Below the pieces are notes generated by a model that ran no database searches, had not been told where the DNA came from, and was given only the letters and a program-made list of their open reading frames with translations. This document shows, piece after piece, positions 4,481-17,496 of a stretch of 30,849 nucleotides of DNA (position 1 is its first letter; every line of letters starts with the position of its first letter). The stretch is from the UHGV virus genome UHGV-0006354; one strand, 5' to 3'. This stretch comes from a virus. The position numbers were made by a program, and so were the translations under genes.

Positions 4481-6703
4481 TTGGCTGTTCAATTCGCTTA
4501 TCCGTGGAACGTCCCACGGTCGGCAATCTCCAGCCCATACCTTACTTATGAGCAACAGCATCGCCGCGACCGTATGTTCGCGGCTTTGCTGCATGCAAAA
4601 AAGGTGCTTTCTCTCCAGCCCGACTGCGTGCGGTTAGATGTTTATCGCACTGCTGCGGTGCTGGAGCAAAATCAGGGTAGTCAACGAGCCAATGCATTTT
4701 TAATCAACTTCTGCAAAAAGGCATTGCCGCGTCTTGAACTGGTCGCAAAAAAATACGAATGCGCTGGTATCAATAGCAAGGTATCAACCGCTGTTTTTGG
4801 AAGTCATTTTGATACTCAGCAAATGCAATATCTGTCGTCACGCATGGTTAATATGGTCGCCCGATATAACCGTCTCCCGGATATGTCGCGCGCTGATGTT
4901 GACCTGTTGGCCGCTGATATTGCTAATTTCATTCGTGGTGAACTTGCCAACATTAATGACCACGGATTCGGCGAGCTTAAAACGCTGTACACCTGGTATA
5001 TTCGTGCTGGCTTTATTTCCCTCCAATTTAACGTTATCCCACCACATTGGGAGCGGGTTGAAAAAAAATATGTCGGTGCGGATGAAATCGCACCGGCTAT
5101 CGCCAAAATGTTTAACGATGGGTGGTGGCGCGGTCGTTTGCGCCGTGTTGCAGCTACGTGGCGCGAACACCTGCAAATTGCAGTCGGCAACGTCAGTAAG
5201 AAAAAAAACACTTACGCGAGTAAAAACTGCGTGACTGACTGGCGTGAACAAAAGCGCCGCACTCGTGAATTTCTCAAAGGTCTGGATCTCGAAGACGAAG
5301 ACGGCAACCGTATCAGCCTGATTGAAAAATATGATGGCTCAGTTGCTAACCCTGCGATTCGCCGCTGTGAGCTCATGACCCGCATTCGTGGGTTTGAAAA
5401 CATCTGTAATGAGCTCGGTTATGTCGGTGAGTTTTACACTCTAACCGCGCCGTCAAAATATCACGCCACGACTAAAGCCGGTTACCGTAACAGCAAATGG
5501 AGCGGTGCCAGCCCGGCTGACACGCAAAACTATCTAACCGGTATCTGGGCGCGTATCCGTGCCAAACTACATCGGGAAGATGTCCGTATTTTCGGTATTC
5601 GTGTCGCCGAGCCTCATCACGACGGCACTCCACACTGGCACATGCTGATGTTCATGCTGCCGGAAGATGTTGAATATGTTCGCTCCATCGTCCGTAAATA
5701 CGCATGGAAAGAAGACCGCCACGAACTGAAAAGCGATAAATCCAAAAAAGCACGTTTCCACGCCGAGTCCATTGACCCAGAGAAAGGGAGCGCAACCGGC
5801 TATGTTGCTAAATACATTTCAAAAAATATCGACGGTTATGCTCTCGATGGTGAAACCGATGATGAAAGCGGTGAGCTGCTGAAAGAGACAGCCCCCGCCG
5901 TTTCAGCATGGGCTGCGCGCTGGCACATCCGTCAGTTTCAGTTTATCGGTGGTGCGCCGGTGACGGTTTACCGTGAGTTGCGTCGCCTCGCTGATACCGA
6001 AACCGCGCACGGACTGAGCGTTGAGTTTGCCGCCGTCCATGATGCCGCCGACGCTGGTGACTGGGCTGGTTATGTTAATGCTCAGGGTGGGCCGTTTGTC
6101 CGTCGCGATGATTTACAGGTGCGCACACTGTATGAACCGCGTACCGAGCTTAATCAGTACGGTGAGGAAACAGTATGTATTAAGGGAGTCTACGATTCCT
6201 CCATAGGTGCAGGGAGTCCGATTTTAACCCGGCTCACTCAGTGGAAGATTGTTCCGAAGCGTGCTGTTGATTTGGCCGTTGACCTTCAGGACGGCAAAGC
6301 CGTCCCTCGGAGTTCTGTCAATAACTGTACGGGAAGCGAAAGCGATCCACCGATACTGGATTTAACAAAACCACTGAGTCGGCGTGAAAGACGAGAATTG
6401 ACCAACCGACTCAGGAAGCAAAAGCCAGCAGCACGGCGAAAATTCATCCACGGAACGGATGAGCAAAACGCAGCTATAGCTAAAACTATCGACGAGATAC
6501 ATCTGACAACCGGCATTAATATCAGCCGGGGCGAAGCCCTGCACCTGATGGCCGGTGGTAAAAGTTGTTTTGATGGTAAATGGCTACGCGGAACGGCCAA
6601 AGGAGAAATATTTTCCGCAGCACCATCGCATGAGGCTAAAGCTCGGAAAATCCTTAATCGTGTTGCGGCGATGGCTGAAGCATCAAAACCAATACATGAG
6701 TAA
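4481..6703 (+). CDS. A: Rolling-circle replication initiation endonuclease (P2 gpA family)
   Basis: 740 aa; TTG start with N-terminus MAV..AYPWNVPR like P2 A; conserved EPHHDGTPHWHMLMF HUH-type motif and YVAKYISKNIDGY tyrosine motif. Confidence 0.85.
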   Translation: MAVQFAYPWNVPRSAISSPYLTYEQQHRRDRMFAALLHAKKVLSLQPDCVRLDVYRTAAVLEQNQGSQRANAFLINFCKKALPRLELVAKKYECAGINSKVSTAVFGSHFDTQQMQYLSSRMVNMVARYNRLPDMSRADVDLLAADIANFIRGELANINDHGFGELKTLYTWYIRAGFISLQFNVIPPHWERVEKKYVGADEIAPAIAKMFNDGWWRGRLRRVAATWREHLQIAVGNVSKKKNTYASKNCVTDWREQKRRTREFLKGLDLEDEDGNRISLIEKYDGSVANPAIRRCELMTRIRGFENICNELGYVGEFYTLTAPSKYHATTKAGYRNSKWSGASPADTQNYLTGIWARIRAKLHREDVRIFGIRVAEPHHDGTPHWHMLMFMLPEDVEYVRSIVRKYAWKEDRHELKSDKSKKARFHAESIDPEKGSATGYVAKYISKNIDGYALDGETDDESGELLKETAPAVSAWAARWHIRQFQFIGGAPVTVYRELRRLADTETAHGLSVEFAAVHDAADAGDWAGYVNAQGGPFVRRDDLQVRTLYEPRTELNQYGEETVCIKGVYDSSIGAGSPILTRLTQWKIVPKRAVDLAVDLQDGKAVPRSSVNNCTGSESDPPILDLTKPLSRRERRELTNRLRKQKPAARRKFIHGTDEQNAAIAKTIDEIHLTTGINISRGEALHLMAGGKSCFDGKWLRGTAKGEIFSAAPSHEAKARKILNRVAAMAEASKPIHE

Positions 6704-6777
6704 TTCATATCCATATCATGCACATACAGCAATCGCTCTATTCGTTTTTTTTCTTCCCATCTTTTGCCAATACGTGC

Positions 6778-6797
6778 TACTGTATAAATATACAGTA
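6778..6797 (+). promoter_or_regulatory. LexA operator (SOS box) 20 nt upstream of the 6817 ORF
   Basis: TACTGTATAAATATACAGTA; CTGT-N8-ACAG at 6780-6795, near-perfect match to the E. coli LexA consensus. Confidence 0.7.
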
Positions 6798-6816
6798 ACC
6801 CTATGGGAGGGATTTC

Positions 6817-6999
6817 ATGGTTGGCGAACATTTCAGCCGAACGCAGCAAAAGTGGGCTTGTGTGCAATTTATTGCCGAGGTATCTCTGATTGCAAACTGC
6901 AAGCCATCAGACTTAAAGCTCGCGCTCACTCTCATTGCAGACCTAGCAAACAGCGAAAATAACGAAACCGAAGATGATAATTTTTATAAGGCTGATTAG
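6817..6999 (+). CDS. LexA-controlled small protein, candidate Tum-like antirepressor module
   Basis: 60 aa; GGGAGG Shine-Dalgarno; directly downstream of the SOS box; ends at TAG in the same frame as the following DinI-like ORF. Confidence 0.5.
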   Translation: MVGEHFSRTQQKWACVQFIAEVSLIANCKPSDLKLALTLIADLANSENNETEDDNFYKAD

Positions 7000-7002
7000 A
7001 TT

Positions 7003-7236
7003 ATGAGAATCAATATCACGTTGGATAAAGAGCAAAAAATTAGTCAGACAACGTTGGATGCACTTGAGGCTGAGCTGTACCGCAATCTTCAACCTATTTA
7101 CCCAAAGACTGCTATCCGCATTCGTAAGGGCTCAGCTAATGGCGTTGAGCTAAGCGGTTTGAAACTGGACGAAGATAAAAAACGAGTGATGGAAATCATG
7201 CAGCAGGTATGGGAGGACGATAGCTGGCTGCATTAA
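7003..7236 (+). CDS. DinI-family protein
   Basis: 77 aa; MRINITLDKEQKIS...ALEAEL...KKRVMEIMQQVWEDDSWLH follows the E. coli DinI pattern (MRIEV..., ...ISEILQETWESADDW). Confidence 0.7.
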   Translation: MRINITLDKEQKISQTTLDALEAELYRNLQPIYPKTAIRIRKGSANGVELSGLKLDEDKKRVMEIMQQVWEDDSWLH

Positions 7237-7240
7237 CAAA

Positions 7241-7307
7241 CGCCGTCGGTGCTGAATCTTGCTTTCAGTGCTGACGGGGTTGAACCACTGGCTCCGCGAG
7301 ACGTTAG
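7241..7307 (+). repeat. Direct repeat copy A (67 bp, about 82 percent identical to copy B)
   Basis: Starts 5 nt after the DinI-like stop; conserved hairpin CTGAA-N7-TTCAG. Confidence 0.6.
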
Positions 7308-7431
7308 TTCTACCTTTCAAACTTTCTCGATGTTTTATTGGTTACACACCGGTGAATAATGGGACGTTACCTTAGAGGATTTTATAGTGGCGCTTTGACA
7401 GCACTGAATAAAATTCATTGAGGGCGATAAT

Positions 7432-7641
7432 ATGCATCGACTACCGGGCGAAATTCCGCAGCACAAAACTAAAAGCATAAAACTGATGGCTATCGTTCAT
7501 CGCTTGCAGACGATAATGGTCAATGAGAATCTGACGCCAGCAGAATTAGTCGGGTGTGCAGAAGTAGTCAGAGATAACTACGGCAAGCTGGACGATATCA
7601 GCAGACCGACACATTACGCACCGCCACCACATCGACCATAG
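7432..7641 (+). CDS. Hypothetical protein
   Basis: 69 aa; GAGGG Shine-Dalgarno; bracketed by repeat copies A and B. Confidence 0.45.
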   Translation: MHRLPGEIPQHKTKSIKLMAIVHRLQTIMVNENLTPAELVGCAEVVRDNYGKLDDISRPTHYAPPPHRP

Positions 7642-7645
7642 ATAA

Positions 7646-7712
7646 CGCCGCCGGAGCTGAAACTCGCTTTCAGGTCTGGCGGGGTTGAACAACGAGCTAC
7701 GCGAGGCGTTAG
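7646..7712 (+). repeat. Direct repeat copy B (67 bp)
   Basis: Starts 5 nt after the 7432-7641 stop; hairpin CTGAAA-N5-TTTCAG with compensatory change relative to copy A. Confidence 0.6.
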
Positions 7713-7774
7713 CTGGTCATAGCGTCGCAAATGCTTTAGCCGTCTGCTGGTTAAATAATTCGAGGTTTTTGGAC

Positions 7775-7969
7775 ATGCAAAATCCCCTTTCATCGAAAAA
7801 AGACCCGTTTGCCGATTGGGCAAAGAATCTGACTTTAATGGCTTTAAATAACGACCTGAGCTCTCGCGAGGTGGAAAGCTACACCGCAAAAATGGTCGGG
7901 CAGGCCAGTAAAGATGAGCTTTCAGCCGTTATCAAACACCTATTAAATCACATCAGAATGCGCAAATAA
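7775..7969 (+). CDS. Hypothetical protein
   Basis: Track ORF 7685-7969 begins at TTG inside repeat B; internal ATG at 7775 (MQNPLSSKK...) gives 64 aa; start uncertain. Confidence 0.35.
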   Translation: MQNPLSSKKDPFADWAKNLTLMALNNDLSSREVESYTAKMVGQASKDELSAVIKHLLNHIRMRK

Positions 7970-7984
7970 GAGGAGCTATATAAT

Positions 7985-8086
7985 ATGTTATCTCTCGTTT
8001 ATGAAAATCCGTGGACGACGGTTTTTCTGCTGATTGTTGCCAGTTGTTGTCTCAACAGTATTATTGGCGCATTGCGCAACAAGTGA
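7985..8086 (+). CDS. Small hydrophobic peptide (33 aa), single predicted transmembrane helix
   Basis: MLSLVYENPWTTVFLLIVASCCLNSIIGALRNK; AGGAG Shine-Dalgarno 8 nt upstream; below the ORF-track size cut-off; terminator follows. Confidence 0.35.
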   Translation: MLSLVYENPWTTVFLLIVASCCLNSIIGALRNK

Positions 8087-8108
8087 CCTCAATAAATCTG
8101 ATTCAAAT

Positions 8109-8133
8109 CGGCACCAAAAATGCCGGTTTTTTT
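8109..8133 (+). terminator. Rho-independent terminator ending the early/SOS region before cos
   Basis: CGGCA-CCAAAAA-TGCCG hairpin followed by seven T (8127-8133). Confidence 0.6.
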
Positions 8134-8293
8134 ATGCCATTTTTCCGCGAATTTCCCGTTTTTTAGCTATGCATGCAACAGGTGCATGGTTTTGCATGCG
8201 TCAGGCTTGCCCGTTCAGGCCGTACGCCACCAGAGCTGGCGCAGAACCAGAGTGGTCATGCAACTGCATTAAAACCGCCCCATAAAGCGGGCA

Positions 8294-8312
8294 GGCGTGG
8301 CGGGGAAAGCAT
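8294..8312. other. cos cohesive-end site (P2/186 type)
   Basis: GGCGTGGCGGGGAAAGCAT, matching the 19-nt P2/186 cohesive end as I recall it (P2 GGCGAGGCGGGGAAAGCAC); lies between the replication module and portal gene as expected. Confidence 0.6.
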
Positions 8313-8459
8313 TGCGCGCCAGCGGTGGTGCGTAATAATAAAAATTATCGTCTGATCGCGTCGTAATGGCGCGCGCGTGGTTGCTGTCGGCTCGTTGGTG
8401 GTCTGGTGTGGTCGTGCGCGCGTGGCGCGTCTGAGGCGTGATGCTGGGTGTGTATGGAA

Positions 8460-8482
8460 AAGCCGCTTAGAGACAGCGGCTT
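8460..8482 (-). terminator. Hairpin downstream of the minus-strand cargo gene (terminator-like, no U-tract)
   Basis: AAGCCGCT-N7-AGCGGCTT, 8-bp stem. Confidence 0.3.
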
Positions 8483-8533
8483 AACAATAGTGGTGGGATT
8501 TAAACTGCTAATAATGTTTCTACAAACATTAAC

Positions 8534-9517
8534 CTAATTTACATGTATGTAGAGTTCACTGTCACTAGACCAGTCGGGGCACTCTAAAGCAAGCCCAAAC
8601 TGCTTGTATATTTCATCAATGACTAATGTTATCTCAAGATAATCATCAAAACCTGTAATGCGTTGATCATTGAATTTTTCATAAAGATTCTGAAATGCAG
8701 CTCCTAACTCTGATAATTGATTCCTTATTTTTGAGTTGGATAGTGTAAGGGCTAGTTTTGGGTCGTATTCATTAATATTGATGTTTAGAGAATGGACGTA
8801 ACCTATCGCATAAGCATAGGAGTTGATAATTAGCTTGAAGCGTTTTTTTGCTTCAAGATACATTTCATTCAGAGAAATATTGCCTCTTTTATAGTTCAGA
8901 GTGAGATTTTCAATCTCGTCAGACACTTCATTTACAACAGTATCAAGATTCTCTAGAAATAAATCGATAGTCTCTTGAGGGGCTGACCACGAAGACATGT
9001 AATTAGCAAGATATTCAGACCATGCACGAGTGGCTGTGATAAGCAGCGCGTCGCCATACTCGTTGACTGTAAAGTTTTGGGCTAAGCATGTTAGTAAGTT
9101 TTTTTCATGTACGTGCACTAACTCATGGTGAATGCGATGGATGACTGCGCGGTATCCTTCTTCATTTAATTTCAGGAAGCTACCATCATTAAAAAGCTCA
9201 CCAAAAAAATCAATAGATAGCACAAGGGTATATTCTTCACATAGCCCATCGCTGCCAATTTTTGTTACTAATTGCCCGACGGCTGCGCCCTGTTTGCTAT
9301 TGGTAAATGAACTAGGGGATTTGTGTTGGTAAATGGAAGTCACATTTTGAAGAGCTTCACTGAAATTATAGGAGACAACCACGCATTTTAATTTTGAGAT
9401 ATCAAGATTGAGATTTTTTGTTAAGACTCGAATAGCTTCTAGCGTGAAGTTACCGATATTATTTGCTTCTTGCTCAGTAGTGAAACCTTCGAGGGTTATT
9501 TTAAAATCAGTTTCCAA
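8534..9517 (-). CDS. AT-rich cargo gene: HExxH-motif (zinc-metallopeptidase-like) protein of unknown function, inserted between cos and portal gene Q
   Basis: 327 aa, TTG start with GGAG Shine-Dalgarno; HELVH at residues 131-135; no signal peptide or transmembrane segment; plausible sigma70 promoter (TTGAAG-17-TATAGT on minus strand, plus about 9557-9585). Confidence 0.8.
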   Translation of the reverse strand: METDFKITLEGFTTEQEANNIGNFTLEAIRVLTKNLNLDISKLKCVVVSYNFSEALQNVTSIYQHKSPSSFTNSKQGAAVGQLVTKIGSDGLCEEYTLVLSIDFFGELFNDGSFLKLNEEGYRAVIHRIHHELVHVHEKNLLTCLAQNFTVNEYGDALLITATRAWSEYLANYMSSWSAPQETIDLFLENLDTVVNEVSDEIENLTLNYKRGNISLNEMYLEAKKRFKLIINSYAYAIGYVHSLNININEYDPKLALTLSNSKIRNQLSELGAAFQNLYEKFNDQRITGFDDYLEITLVIDEIYKQFGLALECPDWSSDSELYIHVN

Positions 9518-9615: not shown

Positions 9616-10662
9616 TTATTCCGGGTTGTCGAGGGTGTACTCTTTGAACCTGATGACCTCCATGCCGAGCCAGTCGTTTACCTCCCTGAACCTGTCCTGC
9701 AGGGGTGACAGCTCGTTACGCACGAATACCTTTGCCACCTTCTCAACGTCGCCGAGTGAGCCGATATTCTCGGGCTTGCCGCCCATGAGCTGGAACGGCA
9801 CGCGGTGCGCGTCCATCAGGTCGGCGGCGCTGGCTTTCTTAATGTTGAAAAAGTCATCCTTTGTGGCGACCTCGCTCAGTGGCACGATTTTGATGCCGTC
9901 CGGTTTTCCGCCGGGGGCGTAGAAAAACAGGTTCTTAAAGTTGCCGAGTCCCTTCGAGTTACGCATCGCCTCGCGCAGCGATTCGACGTCGGTCGCACTT
10001 TGCGCCGGGTCAGTCACATACATGATGTAGCCTGCGTGCGCGCCGTTCTGATAATACTTGCGGCGGAACAGCGTCGCGGATTCATTCAGCCAGGCGGAAT
10101 TAAGCGCGCTGAGATATTCCGGCAGACCGTAAATCTCCTGATTAATGTCGGGCTCCAGCAGGTGAAACACGGTATCAGGCGCGAACTCGTGCGGCTGGGT
10201 GAAGTTTTCCACAAACCAGAAAATCGAATCGTCGACTCCGCGTCGGGTGTATTTGGCTGGCGAGGCCAGCAGTTTGATTAACTGGCCGGTGACGCTGTGG
10301 CGCTGCTCAAGAAAGGCGTTACCGAACACCAGATAATCGAGCGCAAAGCGGCTGAAATCCTGACGGGATAACAACGGGTGCGGAATGTAGGTGCTCGCGA
10401 GCACGTTACGCTTAACATAAATTGGCGAGCTGTGATGCACGGCAGAGCGCAGGCTCTTTGCCAGCCCTGAGAAGCTGACCGGCGGCTCGTACCATTTGCC
10501 GTTACTGATGCACTCGACGTAATCCAGAATGTCGCGCTTATCGAGTACCGGCACCGGCTCGCCGAAGGTGAACGCTGTCGTTTTTGGCGGTGCGCTGGCG
10601 GTCAGTTGTTGTGGTTTGCTGGCCTTTTGTGCGTTGGCTTTACGGGATTTTTGTTTACCCAT
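9616..10662 (-). CDS. Q: Portal protein (P2 gpQ family)
   Basis: 348 aa (P2 Q 344 aa); Lys-rich N-terminus MGKQKSRKANAQKASK; position between cos and terminase. Confidence 0.9.
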   Translation of the reverse strand: MGKQKSRKANAQKASKPQQLTASAPPKTTAFTFGEPVPVLDKRDILDYVECISNGKWYEPPVSFSGLAKSLRSAVHHSSPIYVKRNVLASTYIPHPLLSRQDFSRFALDYLVFGNAFLEQRHSVTGQLIKLLASPAKYTRRGVDDSIFWFVENFTQPHEFAPDTVFHLLEPDINQEIYGLPEYLSALNSAWLNESATLFRRKYYQNGAHAGYIMYVTDPAQSATDVESLREAMRNSKGLGNFKNLFFYAPGGKPDGIKIVPLSEVATKDDFFNIKKASAADLMDAHRVPFQLMGGKPENIGSLGDVEKVAKVFVRNELSPLQDRFREVNDWLGMEVIRFKEYTLDNPE

Positions 10663-10663
10663 T

Positions 10664-12433
10664 TTAGTTGAACTCCAGAATAGATTTAGGCTGCATGCCG
10701 CTACCGGCAGAAAGCGGTTCGTTTAACAGGGCGTGCATGGTCGCCCATGCGATATCGGCGTGGCTGGCTTCCTCGGTGCGGCTGGCCTCATAGGTGGCGC
10801 TGCGCCCGCTGCTGGTCATGGTTTTGCGGATGGACATAAACGACTGCGTGACGTCGGTTGCTCCGGCGTCGTACTCCAGACAGCCACGGCGAATGGTGTC
10901 TTTCGCCTTGAGTACCATTGCGGTTTTCATTTCAGGTGTGTAACGGATGCCGCGTGCCGCCGGGTAAAATGAGCGCACCAGCTGGAACACGCCGAGACCG
11001 AGGCCGGTTGCGTCAATGCCGATGTATTCGACGTTGTATTTCTCGGTCAGCTTGCGGATGCCCTCTGCCTGTGCTGCAAAATCCATGCCCTTCCACTGGT
11101 GGCGCTCCAGCATGCGGAACTTGCCACCAGAGACCACCGGCGGCGCGAGCACGACGCACCCGGCACTGTCGCCGGTGTGTGACGGGTCGTAGCCAATCCA
11201 GACAGGACGAGAGCCGAACGGATGGTCGGCGAACGGGGCAAAGTCCTCCCATTCCTCCATCACATCGACCATGCAGCGCTGCAGCTCCTCGAACGGGAAT
11301 ACCGACGCTTTATCGTCGACAAACTCGCACATAAACAGGTTCTTAAAGTCCTCATCACTGTTTTCGCGTTTGAGCTGGTCGAGGTCGAACAGGGTGCAGC
11401 CACCCGCAAGGGCGTCCTCAATGGTGACAATCTGCCGCCACTGGCCATCGTCGCAGAGCTGGCCACCGGCGAGCGCGCTGTGACTGATGTCGATTTCGAT
11501 GCGGTCGGCAATCCGGCTGCGCCCCTTGTTGAACAGCTCGCCAGACCAGAAGGGGTAAGCGCCGTGCGCCAGCGTGGAAGGTGTCGAAAAATAGGTCGAG
11601 CGCAGGTGCTTTTGCGAGGCCATGCCCGAGGCGACTTTGCGCAGTTTCTGAAAATTCGGGATCCAGAATATTTCATCGACATACAGATCGCCGTTATGGC
11701 TCTGCGCGGTGTTGGAATTGGTACCGAGAAAAATCAGTTTTGCGCCGTTGTTACCGATGACAATCGGGTCGCCAGTCAGGTCAACGTCGACCAGTCGCGC
11801 AAACTGGATGATGTATTCGCGGAACACGTAAGCCTGCGTTTTACTGGCTGATAAAAATATCTGGTTATGGCCGGTTTTGAGTGCGCGCAGCAGTGCCTCG
11901 CGGGAGAAATAGAATGTCGCGCCAATCTGGCGGGATTTGAGAATGTCACGAATACGGTGCTCCAGTCCTGCGCGGTACCACTGCAACTGGTACTCGAAAG
12001 ACTGGTCGAAAAATAATTCCTCTAGTTTATCGATAGCCTCGTCGCTGAAAAAATTCTTTTTCGGCTTTTTGCGCTCCCCTTTGTTGCGGTTGGCGACGTT
12101 GGGGTTAAGGTCGGCTTCGTTGCCGGTCTGGCTGTAGCGGTTGACTCGCGCCAACCGTTCAATCTGCCGTCCGAGTAGGTCAATCTCTTTGAAATCACCC
12201 CCTGTCTTTTGCGGCTTGGCGATGAGCTGAATCAGCCTAGCCTCAAGGCTGCTTTCAACGCGGGAAATCGGCGCGATGCCGTCCCAGCCGTCGCGCTGCT
12301 TCCAGCTCTGCACGGTCGGGCGCTTGACCTGCAGCATTTCGGCAATCTGTGGCACGGAAAAACCCTGCCAGTAAAGCAGCGATGCCTGCCGTCGCGGGTC
12401 ATGCAACAAGGTTGTATCGGTGGAATTGGTCAT
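10664..12433 (-). CDS. P: Terminase large (ATPase) subunit (P2 gpP family)
   Basis: 589 aa (P2 P 590 aa); divergent from O across the 12434-12598 intergenic region. Confidence 0.9.
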   Translation of the reverse strand: MTNSTDTTLLHDPRRQASLLYWQGFSVPQIAEMLQVKRPTVQSWKQRDGWDGIAPISRVESSLEARLIQLIAKPQKTGGDFKEIDLLGRQIERLARVNRYSQTGNEADLNPNVANRNKGERKKPKKNFFSDEAIDKLEELFFDQSFEYQLQWYRAGLEHRIRDILKSRQIGATFYFSREALLRALKTGHNQIFLSASKTQAYVFREYIIQFARLVDVDLTGDPIVIGNNGAKLIFLGTNSNTAQSHNGDLYVDEIFWIPNFQKLRKVASGMASQKHLRSTYFSTPSTLAHGAYPFWSGELFNKGRSRIADRIEIDISHSALAGGQLCDDGQWRQIVTIEDALAGGCTLFDLDQLKRENSDEDFKNLFMCEFVDDKASVFPFEELQRCMVDVMEEWEDFAPFADHPFGSRPVWIGYDPSHTGDSAGCVVLAPPVVSGGKFRMLERHQWKGMDFAAQAEGIRKLTEKYNVEYIGIDATGLGLGVFQLVRSFYPAARGIRYTPEMKTAMVLKAKDTIRRGCLEYDAGATDVTQSFMSIRKTMTSSGRSATYEASRTEEASHADIAWATMHALLNEPLSAGSGMQPKSILEFN

Positions 12434-16160: not shown

Positions 16161-16457
16161 ATGACAGAAGGGGAAAAAGGCGTCCTGTCACTGTTTGTGA
16201 TTGGCGTGATGATTGTTGTCGGAAAAGTGCTGGCGGGTGGTGAGCCCATTACCCCGCGCCTGTTTATCGGCCGCATGCTGCTCGGCGGTTTTGTTTCAAT
16301 GGTCGCCGGTGTTGTTCTGGTGCAGTTTCCAGATATGTCACTGCCTGCCGTTTGTGGGATTGGATCCATGCTCGGCATTGCAGGTTATCAGGTGGTGGAA
16401 ATCGCCATTCAGCGCCGCTTTAAGTCACAAAAGGGGGATAGCGATGCCGGTCATTAA
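16161..16457 (+). CDS. Y: Holin (P2 gpY type)
   Basis: 98 aa with three hydrophobic segments and a charged C-terminal tail. Confidence 0.8.
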   Translation: MTEGEKGVLSLFVIGVMIVVGKVLAGGEPITPRLFIGRMLLGGFVSMVAGVVLVQFPDMSLPAVCGIGSMLGIAGYQVVEIAIQRRFKSQKGDSDAGH

Positions 16458-16941
16458 TACTCACCAGAATATCGCCGCGTTTCTGGACATGCTGGCCTAT
16501 TCCGAAGGGACGGCGACGCATCCGCTGACGAAAAATCGTGGTTACGACGTCATTGTCACTGGCATTGATGGCAAGCCGGAAATTTTCACCGACTACACCG
16601 ACCACCCTTTCGCACATGGCAGACCAGCGAAAGTGTTTAATCGACGCGGCGAAAAATCCACGGCATCAGGGCGTTACCAGCAGCTTTATCTCTACTGGCC
16701 GCACTATCAGAAACAGCTCGCATTGCCTGATTTCAGCCCGTTGTCGCAGGACAAACTTGCGATTCAGTTAATCCGGGAGCGCGGTGCCATTGAGGATATT
16801 AAAGCGGGGCGTATTGAGCGAGCAATTTCACGTTGCCGCAATATATGGGCGTCGCTGCCGGGTGCAGGTTACGGCCAGCGTGAGCACAGCCTCGACAAAC
16901 TGGTCACTGTGTGGCGCACGGCTGGCGGGGTGATGGCATGA
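16444..16941 (+). CDS. K: Endolysin (P2 gpK lysozyme family)
   Basis: 165 aa from internal ATG 16444 of track ORF 16213-16941; MPVINTHQNIAAFLDMLAYSEGT; overlaps holin 3' end. Confidence 0.85.
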   Translation: MPVINTHQNIAAFLDMLAYSEGTATHPLTKNRGYDVIVTGIDGKPEIFTDYTDHPFAHGRPAKVFNRRGEKSTASGRYQQLYLYWPHYQKQLALPDFSPLSQDKLAIQLIRERGAIEDIKAGRIERAISRCRNIWASLPGAGYGQREHSLDKLVTVWRTAGGVMA

Positions 16942-17351
16942 AAATCCTGATAACGCTGCTGGTGCTGGCCGTGCTCGGGCTGCTGTGGTTGCGCCATGAG
17001 AACGGCAATTTATCCCGCTCCTTTGAGACGGCAAACCGCGTCGCAAGCGAACAAAAGACGACGATTGGCATGCTGAAAAATCAGCTCAGTGTTGCCGGTC
17101 AGCTTGCCCGACGTAATGAATCCGCGCAGGTGGAACTGCGCGAACAGCTCGCAAAGGCCAGCGCAGAGGCCAGCCGCCGTGAGCAGACGATAACGAGGTT
17201 ACTTAATGAAAATGAAGCCTTTCGCCGCTGGTATAACGCTGCTTTGCCTGATGTTGTGCGTCGGCTGCACACCCGCACCGCCTGCGCCAGTGCCGGTGAT
17301 TGTGGTCAGCGGATGCCCGAGGGTGAGCCTTTGTCCGATGCCGGGAAGTGA
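16938..17351 (+). CDS. lysB: Rz-like inner-membrane spanin (LysB)
   Basis: 137 aa from ATG 16938; N-terminal TM MKILITLLVLAVLGLLWL then coiled-coil region. Confidence 0.7.
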   Translation: MKILITLLVLAVLGLLWLRHENGNLSRSFETANRVASEQKTTIGMLKNQLSVAGQLARRNESAQVELREQLAKASAEASRREQTITRLLNENEAFRRWYNAALPDVVRRLHTRTACASAGDCGQRMPEGEPLSDAGK

Positions 17352-17496
17352 CCCGAAAACCAATGGTGACCTGAGCGCAGATATCCGCCGTCTTGAGGGC
17401 GCGCTGACCGCCTGCGCGCTGCAGGTTAAAACCGTCAAACACTGTCAGGATGAACTCGATGCAGAAGCACAAAAGCCTGCGCAAAGCGCTGATTAA
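17206..17496 (+). CDS. lysC: Rz1-like outer-membrane lipoprotein spanin (LysC), embedded in lysB in another frame and running into R
   Basis: 96 aa; signal/lipobox-like LLCLMLCVGC followed by Pro-rich TPAPPAPVPV. Confidence 0.55.
   Translation: MKMKPFAAGITLLCLMLCVGCTPAPPAPVPVIVVSGCPRVSLCPMPGSDPKTNGDLSADIRRLEGALTACALQVKTVKHCQDELDAEAQKPAQSAD

Follow-up and report, generated by a model that had tools for sequence, protein, structure and literature searches.

The 186-like prophages are a classic model of SOS-dependent antirepression. In phage 186 itself, tum and orf97 make up the SOS operon (Brumby 1996; Shearwin 1998; both cited in PMC5322425). The product of orf97 has been annotated as blocking infection by phage 186 when it is expressed from a plasmid, and this annotation therefore provides a precedent for an exclusion-type accessory gene at this position. 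Moreover, the cos-proximal interval between gpA and gpQ of P2-like phages has been described as a hotspot for accessory and anti-phage cargo (PMC9122126). Here, we report on the analysis of orf33, a short open reading frame (ORF) for a single-pass membrane microprotein of 33 amino acids (aa), which is located in the gpA-gpQ interval of the virus genome UHGV-0006354. The analysed stretch of DNA, in the following referred to as the window, comprises 30,849 nucleotides (nt) and is a phage-186-like prophage (Eganvirus, Peduoviridae). The interval spans cos, and both gpA and the portal gene were confirmed by Pfam. DNA matches around orf33 were found in the Salmonella phages SW9, SI22, FSLSP004 and SEN1, in the Escherichia phage Midge and in phage 186. 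We consider it likely that orf33 is a real and translated membrane-peptide gene of a p95-type operon, and we place much less confidence in any specific activity of its product.

Conservation of the orf33 reading frame

The evolution of orf33 was analysed using four sets of relatives. The first set comprises DNA-similarity matches from collections of phages and of E. coli, and 76 of the 5426 complete E. coli genomes have the region. The second set was anchored on the adjoining gene orf64 in IMG/VR and is hence unbiased as to orf33. The third set was retrieved with a DNA pattern taken from the 5' end of orf33, and the fourth by searching for exact matches to divergent Orf64 proteins, which came from Edwardsiella, Kluyvera, Lelliottia, Enterobacter and metagenomes. 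An orf64-anchored search of a genome collection with one genome per species yielded two loci, and the diversity was drawn from the other collections.

An ATG start codon, a length of exactly 33 codons and a stop codon in the same place are shared by 39 of the 46 unique region sequences, in which 24 distinct peptides are encoded. The stop codon itself swaps between TGA and TAA among the relatives. Furthermore, insertions and deletions (indels) of 1 nt are common in the spacer between the Shine-Dalgarno (SD) sequence and the start codon, in the spacer behind the stop codon and in the T tract of the downstream terminator, and the intact ORFs contain none. When changes were counted along a minimum spanning tree of the haplotypes, 45.5 of the 89 changes in the orf33 frame turned out to be synonymous, as compared with an expectation of 22.5% (p = 7e-9). 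The ratio of nonsynonymous to synonymous substitution rates (dN/dS) is 0.28-0.29 in the orf33 frame versus 0.59-1.35 in the five other frames, and it equals that of the adjoining orf64 (0.29). Residues of the helix are replaced conservatively (V/I, L/M, I/V, A/T and S/T), and the residues M1, L2, L4, Y6, E7, N8, W10, T11, T12, F14, L15, C22, L23, S25, I27 and L30 are invariant. Since the purifying selection is frame-specific and the start, the stop and the length are conserved, orf33 is a genuine conserved coding gene and more than a chance ORF. The initial annotation of the locus had made its proposal depend on conservation of the frame in relatives, and the frame is indeed kept. The intactness of the ORF was also assessed by a column-permutation test, in which all copies were intact in 31 of 5000 permutations. 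However, this test is circular because decayed copies had been excluded beforehand, and it does not serve as main evidence.

Translation signal and properties of the peptide

The initial annotation described orf33 as an ORF that has a good SD sequence and encodes a hydrophobic single-helix membrane peptide of 33 aa, and this description could be confirmed in both respects. The ATG of orf33 lies 15 nt downstream of the orf64 stop codon, and the duplex of the GAGGAG motif with the 16S 3' end has an energy of -8.3 kcal/mol, which places it in the top 2% among the 1040 ATGs of the window. An SD sequence is found in all relatives. The mean Kyte-Doolittle value of residues 12-30 of the peptide is 2.2, and the flanks carry charges of -1 at the N-terminal side and of +1 to +2 at the C-terminal side. 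The AlphaFold (AF2) model consists of a short helix (residues 3-7), a break at N8/P9 and a second helix (residues 9-31), with a predicted local distance difference test score (pLDDT) of 85. A single-sequence fold of the orf33 region gave a z-score of -1.4.

The gene had also been called unannotated, which holds true for the E. coli PKF8 prophage, where orf33 is omitted by PGAP although this prophage is 99.5% identical to the window. However, orf33 is an annotated coding sequence in the Klebsiella phage ST147-VIM1phi7.1 (QBQ71544.1), and the peptide has already been deposited as a 'hypothetical' or 'uncharacterised protein' in many records, on thousands of contigs.

Searches of Pfam, NCBIfam, PHROGs and PADLOC with orf33 returned nothing informative. 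There was no Pfam or NCBIfam match at E <= 1 beyond noise, and the sole PHROG match was phrog_26968, a family of unknown function (E = 0.039). A phmmer search against 1.84 billion representatives recovered the own family of the peptide, one frameshifted variant of 58 aa and one repetitive false positive. The possibility that orf33 is a fragment of a bigger gene was rejected, as phmmer revealed no distant relatives and no larger parent gene. An Rfam search at E <= 1 over positions 6600-8700 gave two chance-level matches elsewhere and none at orf33. PADLOC had no match for orf33, orf64, orf69, orf60 or the 327-aa neighbour described below, and literature searches for ribosome-profiling work on P2-like prophages found nothing.

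Operon architecture around orf33

Through the -35 element and the LexA box, the promoter region upstream of orf60 (Table 1) differs little from the p95 SOS promoter annotated in phage 186, and its LexA box has 0 mismatches to the consensus versus 0 such sites expected in shuffles. The promoter is followed by orf60, the DinI-family gene, the first copy of a hairpin element, orf69, the second copy of the hairpin element, orf64, orf33 and a homologue of the terminator t95b. The homologue of orf60 in SEN1 has been annotated with the note 'UV induction of bacteriophage'. A consensus scan of positions 6650-8105 revealed no strong plus-strand terminator-like site, and the same was found for SEN1. The sole plus-strand terminator-like match in this range is a weak hairpin with three G-C pairs within orf33 (7995-8018). 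It was rejected as a terminator because a frequent ACG to ACA change breaks the closing pair and is not compensated. The homology with the SOS operon of phage 186 makes it most likely that a LexA-repressed p95-type transcript has orf33 as its last cistron.

The GC core of the intrinsic terminator (CGGCA/TGCCG) begins 22-23 nt past the orf33 stop codon, in agreement with the distance of about 23 nt noted initially. It had further been stated that orf33 has its own terminator. However, the alignment identifies the hairpin as the positional homologue of the annotated 186 terminator t95b ('p95 transcript terminator'), which means that it terminates the operon; moreover, it is also present in phages without orf33. 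The folding energy of the terminator is -10.1 kcal/mol, with a z-score of -1.8 that is modest when taken alone. In 39 relatives, its six stem pairs change only to G-U wobbles, and the loop varies freely. The position just before cos, which had also been pointed out, is a fair description: cos begins 207 nt past the orf33 stop codon and about 160 nt past the terminator.

The antirepressor region of the window is split into orf60 and a separate DinI-family protein, and the Tum protein of phage 186 is a single protein of 146 aa. The C-terminal part of Tum belongs to the same PHROG as the DinI-like protein (phrog_189, profile positions 71-148). The hairpin element (..GCTGAANCTYGCTTTCAGNNCTGRCGGGGTTGAACAACGAGCTNCGCGAGGCGTTAGC..) has a length of about 60 nt and forms a direct repeat on either side of orf69. 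It is also located upstream of t95b in phage 186 (locus L003, 2420-2470), and in SEN1-type phages it is joined directly to the SD sequence of orf33 (SEN1 locus L045, L087 and L088). The element resembles a conserved boundary of cassettes or a recombination junction in the SOS-operon cargo region, or else a partial attenuator or a site of messenger RNA (mRNA) processing.

Table 1. Features of the window that are relevant to orf33 and its surroundings
Feature	Position	Strand	Remarks
Replication gene A (GPA)	4481-6703		PF05840
p95-type promoter	6764..6797	+	-35 TTGCCA 6764-6769; perfect LexA box TACTGTATAAATATACAGTA 6778-6797
orf60	6817-6999	+	First cistron of the SOS operon; phrog_1993
DinI-family/Tum C-terminal-like protein	7003-7236	+	77 aa; PF06183 at 7e-24; phrog_189
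Hairpin element, copy 1	7236-7300	+	-27.1 kcal/mol; z -4.5; no U tract
orf69	7432-7641	+	Cargo gene between the two hairpin elements; phrog_11386
Hairpin element, copy 2	7642-7706	+	-28.7 kcal/mol; z -5.7; no U tract
Retained 5' end (19 codons) of a 143-aa gene	7718-7776	-	ATG overlaps the orf64 ATG as CATG
orf64	7775-7969	+	64-aa soluble three-helix protein; usual upstream neighbour of orf33; phrog_2454
Shine-Dalgarno sequence of orf33	7970-7975	+	GAGGAG; immediately follows the orf64 stop codon and lies 9 nt upstream of the ATG
orf33	7985-8086	+	33-aa single-pass membrane microprotein MLSLVYENPWTTVFLLIVASCCLNSIIGALRNK; ATG to TGA
Intrinsic terminator	8105-8137	+	Homologue of phage 186 t95b; hairpin 8105-8129, T7 tail to ~8137
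cos cohesive end	8294-8312		19 nt, GGCGTGGCGGGGAAAGCAT; coincides exactly with the end of the linear 186 record and the start of the PSP3 record
Portal gene	9616-10662	-	PF04860
Large terminase gene	10664-12433	-	
Lysis cassette	16161-17496		Holin PF04550 (6e-42) at 16161-16457, endolysin-like ORF, LysB/LysC (LysC PF23793)

Distribution of orf33 and neighbouring genes

Phage 186 lacks orf33. Indeed, phages 186 and PSP3, Yersinia and Erwinia phages and some Klebsiella phages have the terminator and the cos-proximal DNA in common with the window from position ~8106-8118, and they contain nothing homologous to orf33. Judging from this distribution, orf33 is an accessory ('moron') gene of 186-like (Eganvirus) prophages. 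Its presence does not require the upstream neighbour: orf33 is intact in relatives in which orf64 has been precisely deleted (SEN1, L087 and L088) or has decayed to fragments (L047, L064, L071, L073, L077 and L085). Thus, orf33 is selected in its own right and is not a mere appendage of orf64.

The orf64 gene has 54 homologues, all of which belong to Enterobacterales and are annotated as hypothetical. In the AF2 model, the protein forms three helices (pLDDT 74). The three-helix bundle has no fold match in the PDB at E <= 0.001, and therefore the neighbour gives no functional hint. The 57 nt upstream of orf64 are a remnant of the 5' end of a minus-strand gene and are nearly invariant across the relatives. 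In many relatives, this gene of 143-145 aa is intact (L002, 1128-1559; L006, 600-1037; L007, 609-1040), and it is divergent from orf64, with the promoter of each gene inside the other. In some relatives, the segment containing orf60, the DinI-family gene and orf69 is replaced by a reverse transcriptase (RT) gene, which is retron- or DRT-like. The RT gene is present in O157:H7, QEC11-421, the Klebsiella phage ST147-VIM1phi7.1 and Enterobacter relatives (L005, 1-466; L006, 1-475; L046, 1-721; L096, 505-1455), where the RT segment lies upstream of the 143-aa gene, orf64 and orf33. Thus, the orf64-orf33-terminator module is fixed while the adjacent cargo is swapped.

On the other side of cos, a minus-strand gene for a protein of 327 aa separates cos from the portal gene (8534-9517; phrog_11743). 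It has no Pfam, NCBIfam or PADLOC match, and other relatives have different genes or none at this position. The gene is located in the P2-like cos-proximal defence hotspot and is a candidate for uncharacterised cargo or a defence gene. RefSeq also annotates a 60-aa ORF at 8173-8355 on the plus strand, straight over the cos cleavage site (PKF8; WP_256994829.1), and minus-strand ORFs of 56-90 aa over the terminator, in the relatives' equivalent of positions 8000-8270 ('aI protein' in SW9). The ORF over cos and the minus-strand ORFs over the terminator look like spurious calls in non-coding cos-proximal DNA.

Alternative explanations for orf33

Toxins and holins were among the functions that the initial annotation had suggested for orf33. 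A type I toxin would be a membrane-depolarising peptide that is restrained by an antisense or overlapping small RNA (sRNA), and it would serve in post-segregational killing, abortive infection or SOS-linked dormancy as described for TisB and DinQ. The orf33 product is indeed a small hydrophobic single-helix peptide with a basic end, and its gene is located downstream of a LexA-controlled promoter like tisB and dinQ. Moreover, the recurrent independent inactivation of orf33 is compatible with a costly product, and the lack of synonymous changes in codons 1-8 (see below) could mark a site of RNA-RNA interaction. However, no Hok, Ldr, TisB, Ibs or other toxin profile of Pfam or NCBIfam was matched, the peptide has no distant relatives and Rfam contains no matching antitoxin RNA. 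A consensus scan, which a weak promoter could escape, did not detect any promoter-like site on the minus strand from the ORF to cos, and the minus-strand terminator-like hairpins from 8294 to 8275 and from 8477 to 8462 would halt antisense transcription from the late operon. In the consensus fold of 39 relatives, there is no conserved long-range or SD-sequestering mRNA structure with covariation. Furthermore, orf33 is an operonic ORF with an exposed SD sequence and not a stand-alone unit with a long and structured 5' untranslated region (UTR). The type I toxin-like character is thus not borne out by a toxin family, an antisense promoter or an sRNA signal, and we regard this explanation as unlikely. 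Two candidates related to it were rejected, namely a hok-like mRNA architecture, because the covarying helices are limited to the terminator, and a minus-strand promoter-like site from 8007 to 7980, which is not conserved and has lost its -10 element in most relatives (TATTGA).

It is similarly improbable that the reading frame is incidental and that the stretch is conserved as a nucleic-acid element, either as a 3'-end-derived sRNA or as a packaging site in the DNA next to cos. The sRNA would end at the terminator, and it would arise either by processing or by transcription from a promoter within the ORF (TTGCCA-16-TATTAT, 8037-8064). The plus-strand promoter-like sequence matches in 10 of 12 positions, and Hfq usually binds 3'-derived sRNAs at a terminator hairpin followed by a U tract. 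An ORF of this size is also short enough to be open by chance in one sequence, and the synonymous sites of codons 1-8 are frozen. However, an incidental frame is difficult to reconcile with the frame-specific purifying selection, the amino-acid-conservative replacements, the swap between TGA and TAA and the lack of indels, which sets orf33 apart from its flanks. Moreover, the -10 element of the internal promoter reads TGTTAT in about half of the relatives, by which the key A2 is lost, and there is no covarying structure save the terminator and no Rfam match. As regards packaging, 186-like phages that package normally have the terminator and cos without the orf33 region, and therefore the region is not needed for this process.

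A function of orf33 in the timing of lysis, as a holin, antiholin or pinholin-like peptide, is very improbable. The single transmembrane helix and the charged C-terminal end would be in line with such a function, but the canonical holin/LysC cassette is located 8 kilobases away, no holin profile of Pfam or PHROG was matched and the gene is dispensable and absent from phage 186 itself. With 33 aa, the peptide is also well below the sizes of known holins.

Finally, PGAP and some phage annotations call a minus-strand ORF of 89-90 aa over the orf33 DNA (WP_001177885.1 in O157:H7, CPTMidge_047 and the 'aI protein' in SW9). It is hardly conceivable that this ORF is the true gene: several RefSeq and GenBank records do contain it, and one antisense frame shares the wobble positions of orf33 and inherits some of its periodicity, so that periodicity alone cannot choose the strand, but no minus-strand ORF over this DNA exceeds 34 aa in the window or in its closest relatives, the minus-strand frames have dN/dS values of 0.59-1.1, the ORF would traverse the terminator hairpin and the T tract, and the long minus-strand ORFs start (MTTLDPRQ.. 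or MQLHEHSG..) and end (..RIFINER or ..VVHGFS) in frames that differ between relatives because 1-nt indels shift the frame. In view of the changing frames, the closure in the window and the path through the terminator, the minus-strand ORFs were dismissed as spurious.

Proposed role of orf33 and its significance

We thus favour the explanation that orf33 is a translated membrane-peptide gene of the p95 operon. Upon removal of LexA by DNA damage, or by basal firing of p95, a transcript would be made that extends to orf33. The gene would be translated from its own SD sequence, possibly coupled to the translation of orf64, and residues ~11-30 of the product would form a single helix inserted in the inner membrane. 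According to the positive-inside rule, the topology is probably N-out/C-in, with the short acidic N-terminus and its YENPW motif outside and the basic C-terminus (R31) in the cytoplasm. The most likely mode of action of the peptide would be a contact between helices within the membrane. Candidates for the surfaces involved are the invariant residues Cys22 and Ser25, the nearly invariant S20, N24 and G28, which have a spacing of four residues, and the invariant YENPW motif. The partner may be a membrane protein of the host or of the phage, or the peptide itself. A modulator or exclusion-type role, which the initial annotation had also named, appears to be more likely than that of an autonomous toxin.

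Several observations weigh against this explanation. The codons 1-8 (7985-8008) have acquired one synonymous change, whereas the rate in codons 9-33 predicts about 11 (p = 2e-4). This freeze indicates a constraint at the nucleotide level on the first 24 nt that goes beyond the peptide, and it is not explained by covarying structure in the consensus fold of the 39 relatives. The translation signal of most relatives combines a long spacing of 11 nt with a moderate SD sequence, which in its AAGGA version has a duplex energy of -5.4 kcal/mol. Moreover, orf33 has been inactivated independently at least seven times, by frameshifts in the T5 run (L011/L084 and L023/L050), by start loss with decay (L020, L026 and L039/L041/L096/L097), by deletion of the start in Kluyvera (L090/L091) and by a stop codon at W10 (L092/L093). 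The gene is therefore dispensable, and the selection is not universal. With respect to transcription, the hairpins at 7236-7300 and 7642-7706 could attenuate the read-through from p95, like the partial terminator t95a in phage 186, and the assignment of a promoter to orf64-orf33 is less certain in relatives that have the divergent minus-strand 143-aa gene. Furthermore, the Pfam, NCBIfam, PHROG, phmmer and PADLOC searches identified no orf33 homologue of known function, and the literature searches found no paper containing the peptide sequence.

A more far-reaching proposal, to which we would assign only a slim chance, is that orf33 encodes a LexA-controlled membrane microprotein that needs no RNA antitoxin and alters the inner membrane in the SOS response or in early induction, and that codons 1-8 contain a second regulatory site acting at the RNA level. 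Such a protein might block the entry of DNA from superinfecting P2/186-like phages, or it might cause a transient depolarisation as a phage version of TisB and DinQ. If true, no exclusion protein or SOS effector known from phages would be smaller, and lysogens of Salmonella, E. coli and Klebsiella would widely carry it.

The orf33 product adds an uncharacterised member to the small membrane proteins known from phages and does not represent a new type of system. Thousands of contigs from Salmonella, E. coli and Klebsiella encode the peptide, yet it is passed over by PGAP and other standard pipelines, which often place a spurious antisense ORF there instead. If orf33 is expressed in the SOS response, the induction programme of 186-like prophages would gain a component that acts in the membrane, and orf33 would be a candidate for effects on phage exclusion or host physiology in clinically important lysogens. 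Moreover, frame-specific dN/dS, the stop codon swap, the avoidance of indels and the independence from the neighbour make orf33 a clean test case for the annotation of small genes. The practical consequence is modest: the evidence supports annotating orf33 and dropping the antisense ORFs.

Comparison with known systems

The SOS operon of phage 186 has the order p95 - tum - t95a - orf97 - t95b. The promoter with its LexA box and the terminator are homologous to those of the window, and like orf97, orf33 is the last gene before t95b and cos. However, Orf97 consists of 243 aa and has no sequence similarity to the membrane peptide of 33 aa. The E. coli SOS-induced type I toxins TisB (29 aa) and DinQ (27 aa) resemble the orf33 product in their size and their single hydrophobic helix, and a LexA-regulated promoter is located upstream of their genes as well. 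In contrast to these toxins, to which it has no sequence relationship, orf33 is operonic and phage-borne, and no antisense partner or regulatory 5' UTR was detected.

The cargo of the P2-like hotspot includes old, tin and retrons (Rousset et al. 2022, PMC9122126), and orf33 is located in the same interval and is variably present among the relatives. It co-occurs with swappable hotspot cassettes such as the RT genes and the 327-aa gene at 8534-9517. However, unlike these cassettes, orf33 does not swap and is fixed next to the terminator across at least four upstream architectures.

MgrB, AcrZ, MgtS and PmrR are single-pass small proteins that modulate larger membrane proteins. The orf33 product is likewise a protein of <=50 aa with one helix, conserved polar or small residues in the helix and a short, likewise conserved extramembrane motif. 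Although it has no homology to the members of this class and differs from them in being phage-encoded and probably SOS-controlled, it is because of its likeness to them that an action by helix-helix contact is proposed for the orf33 peptide.

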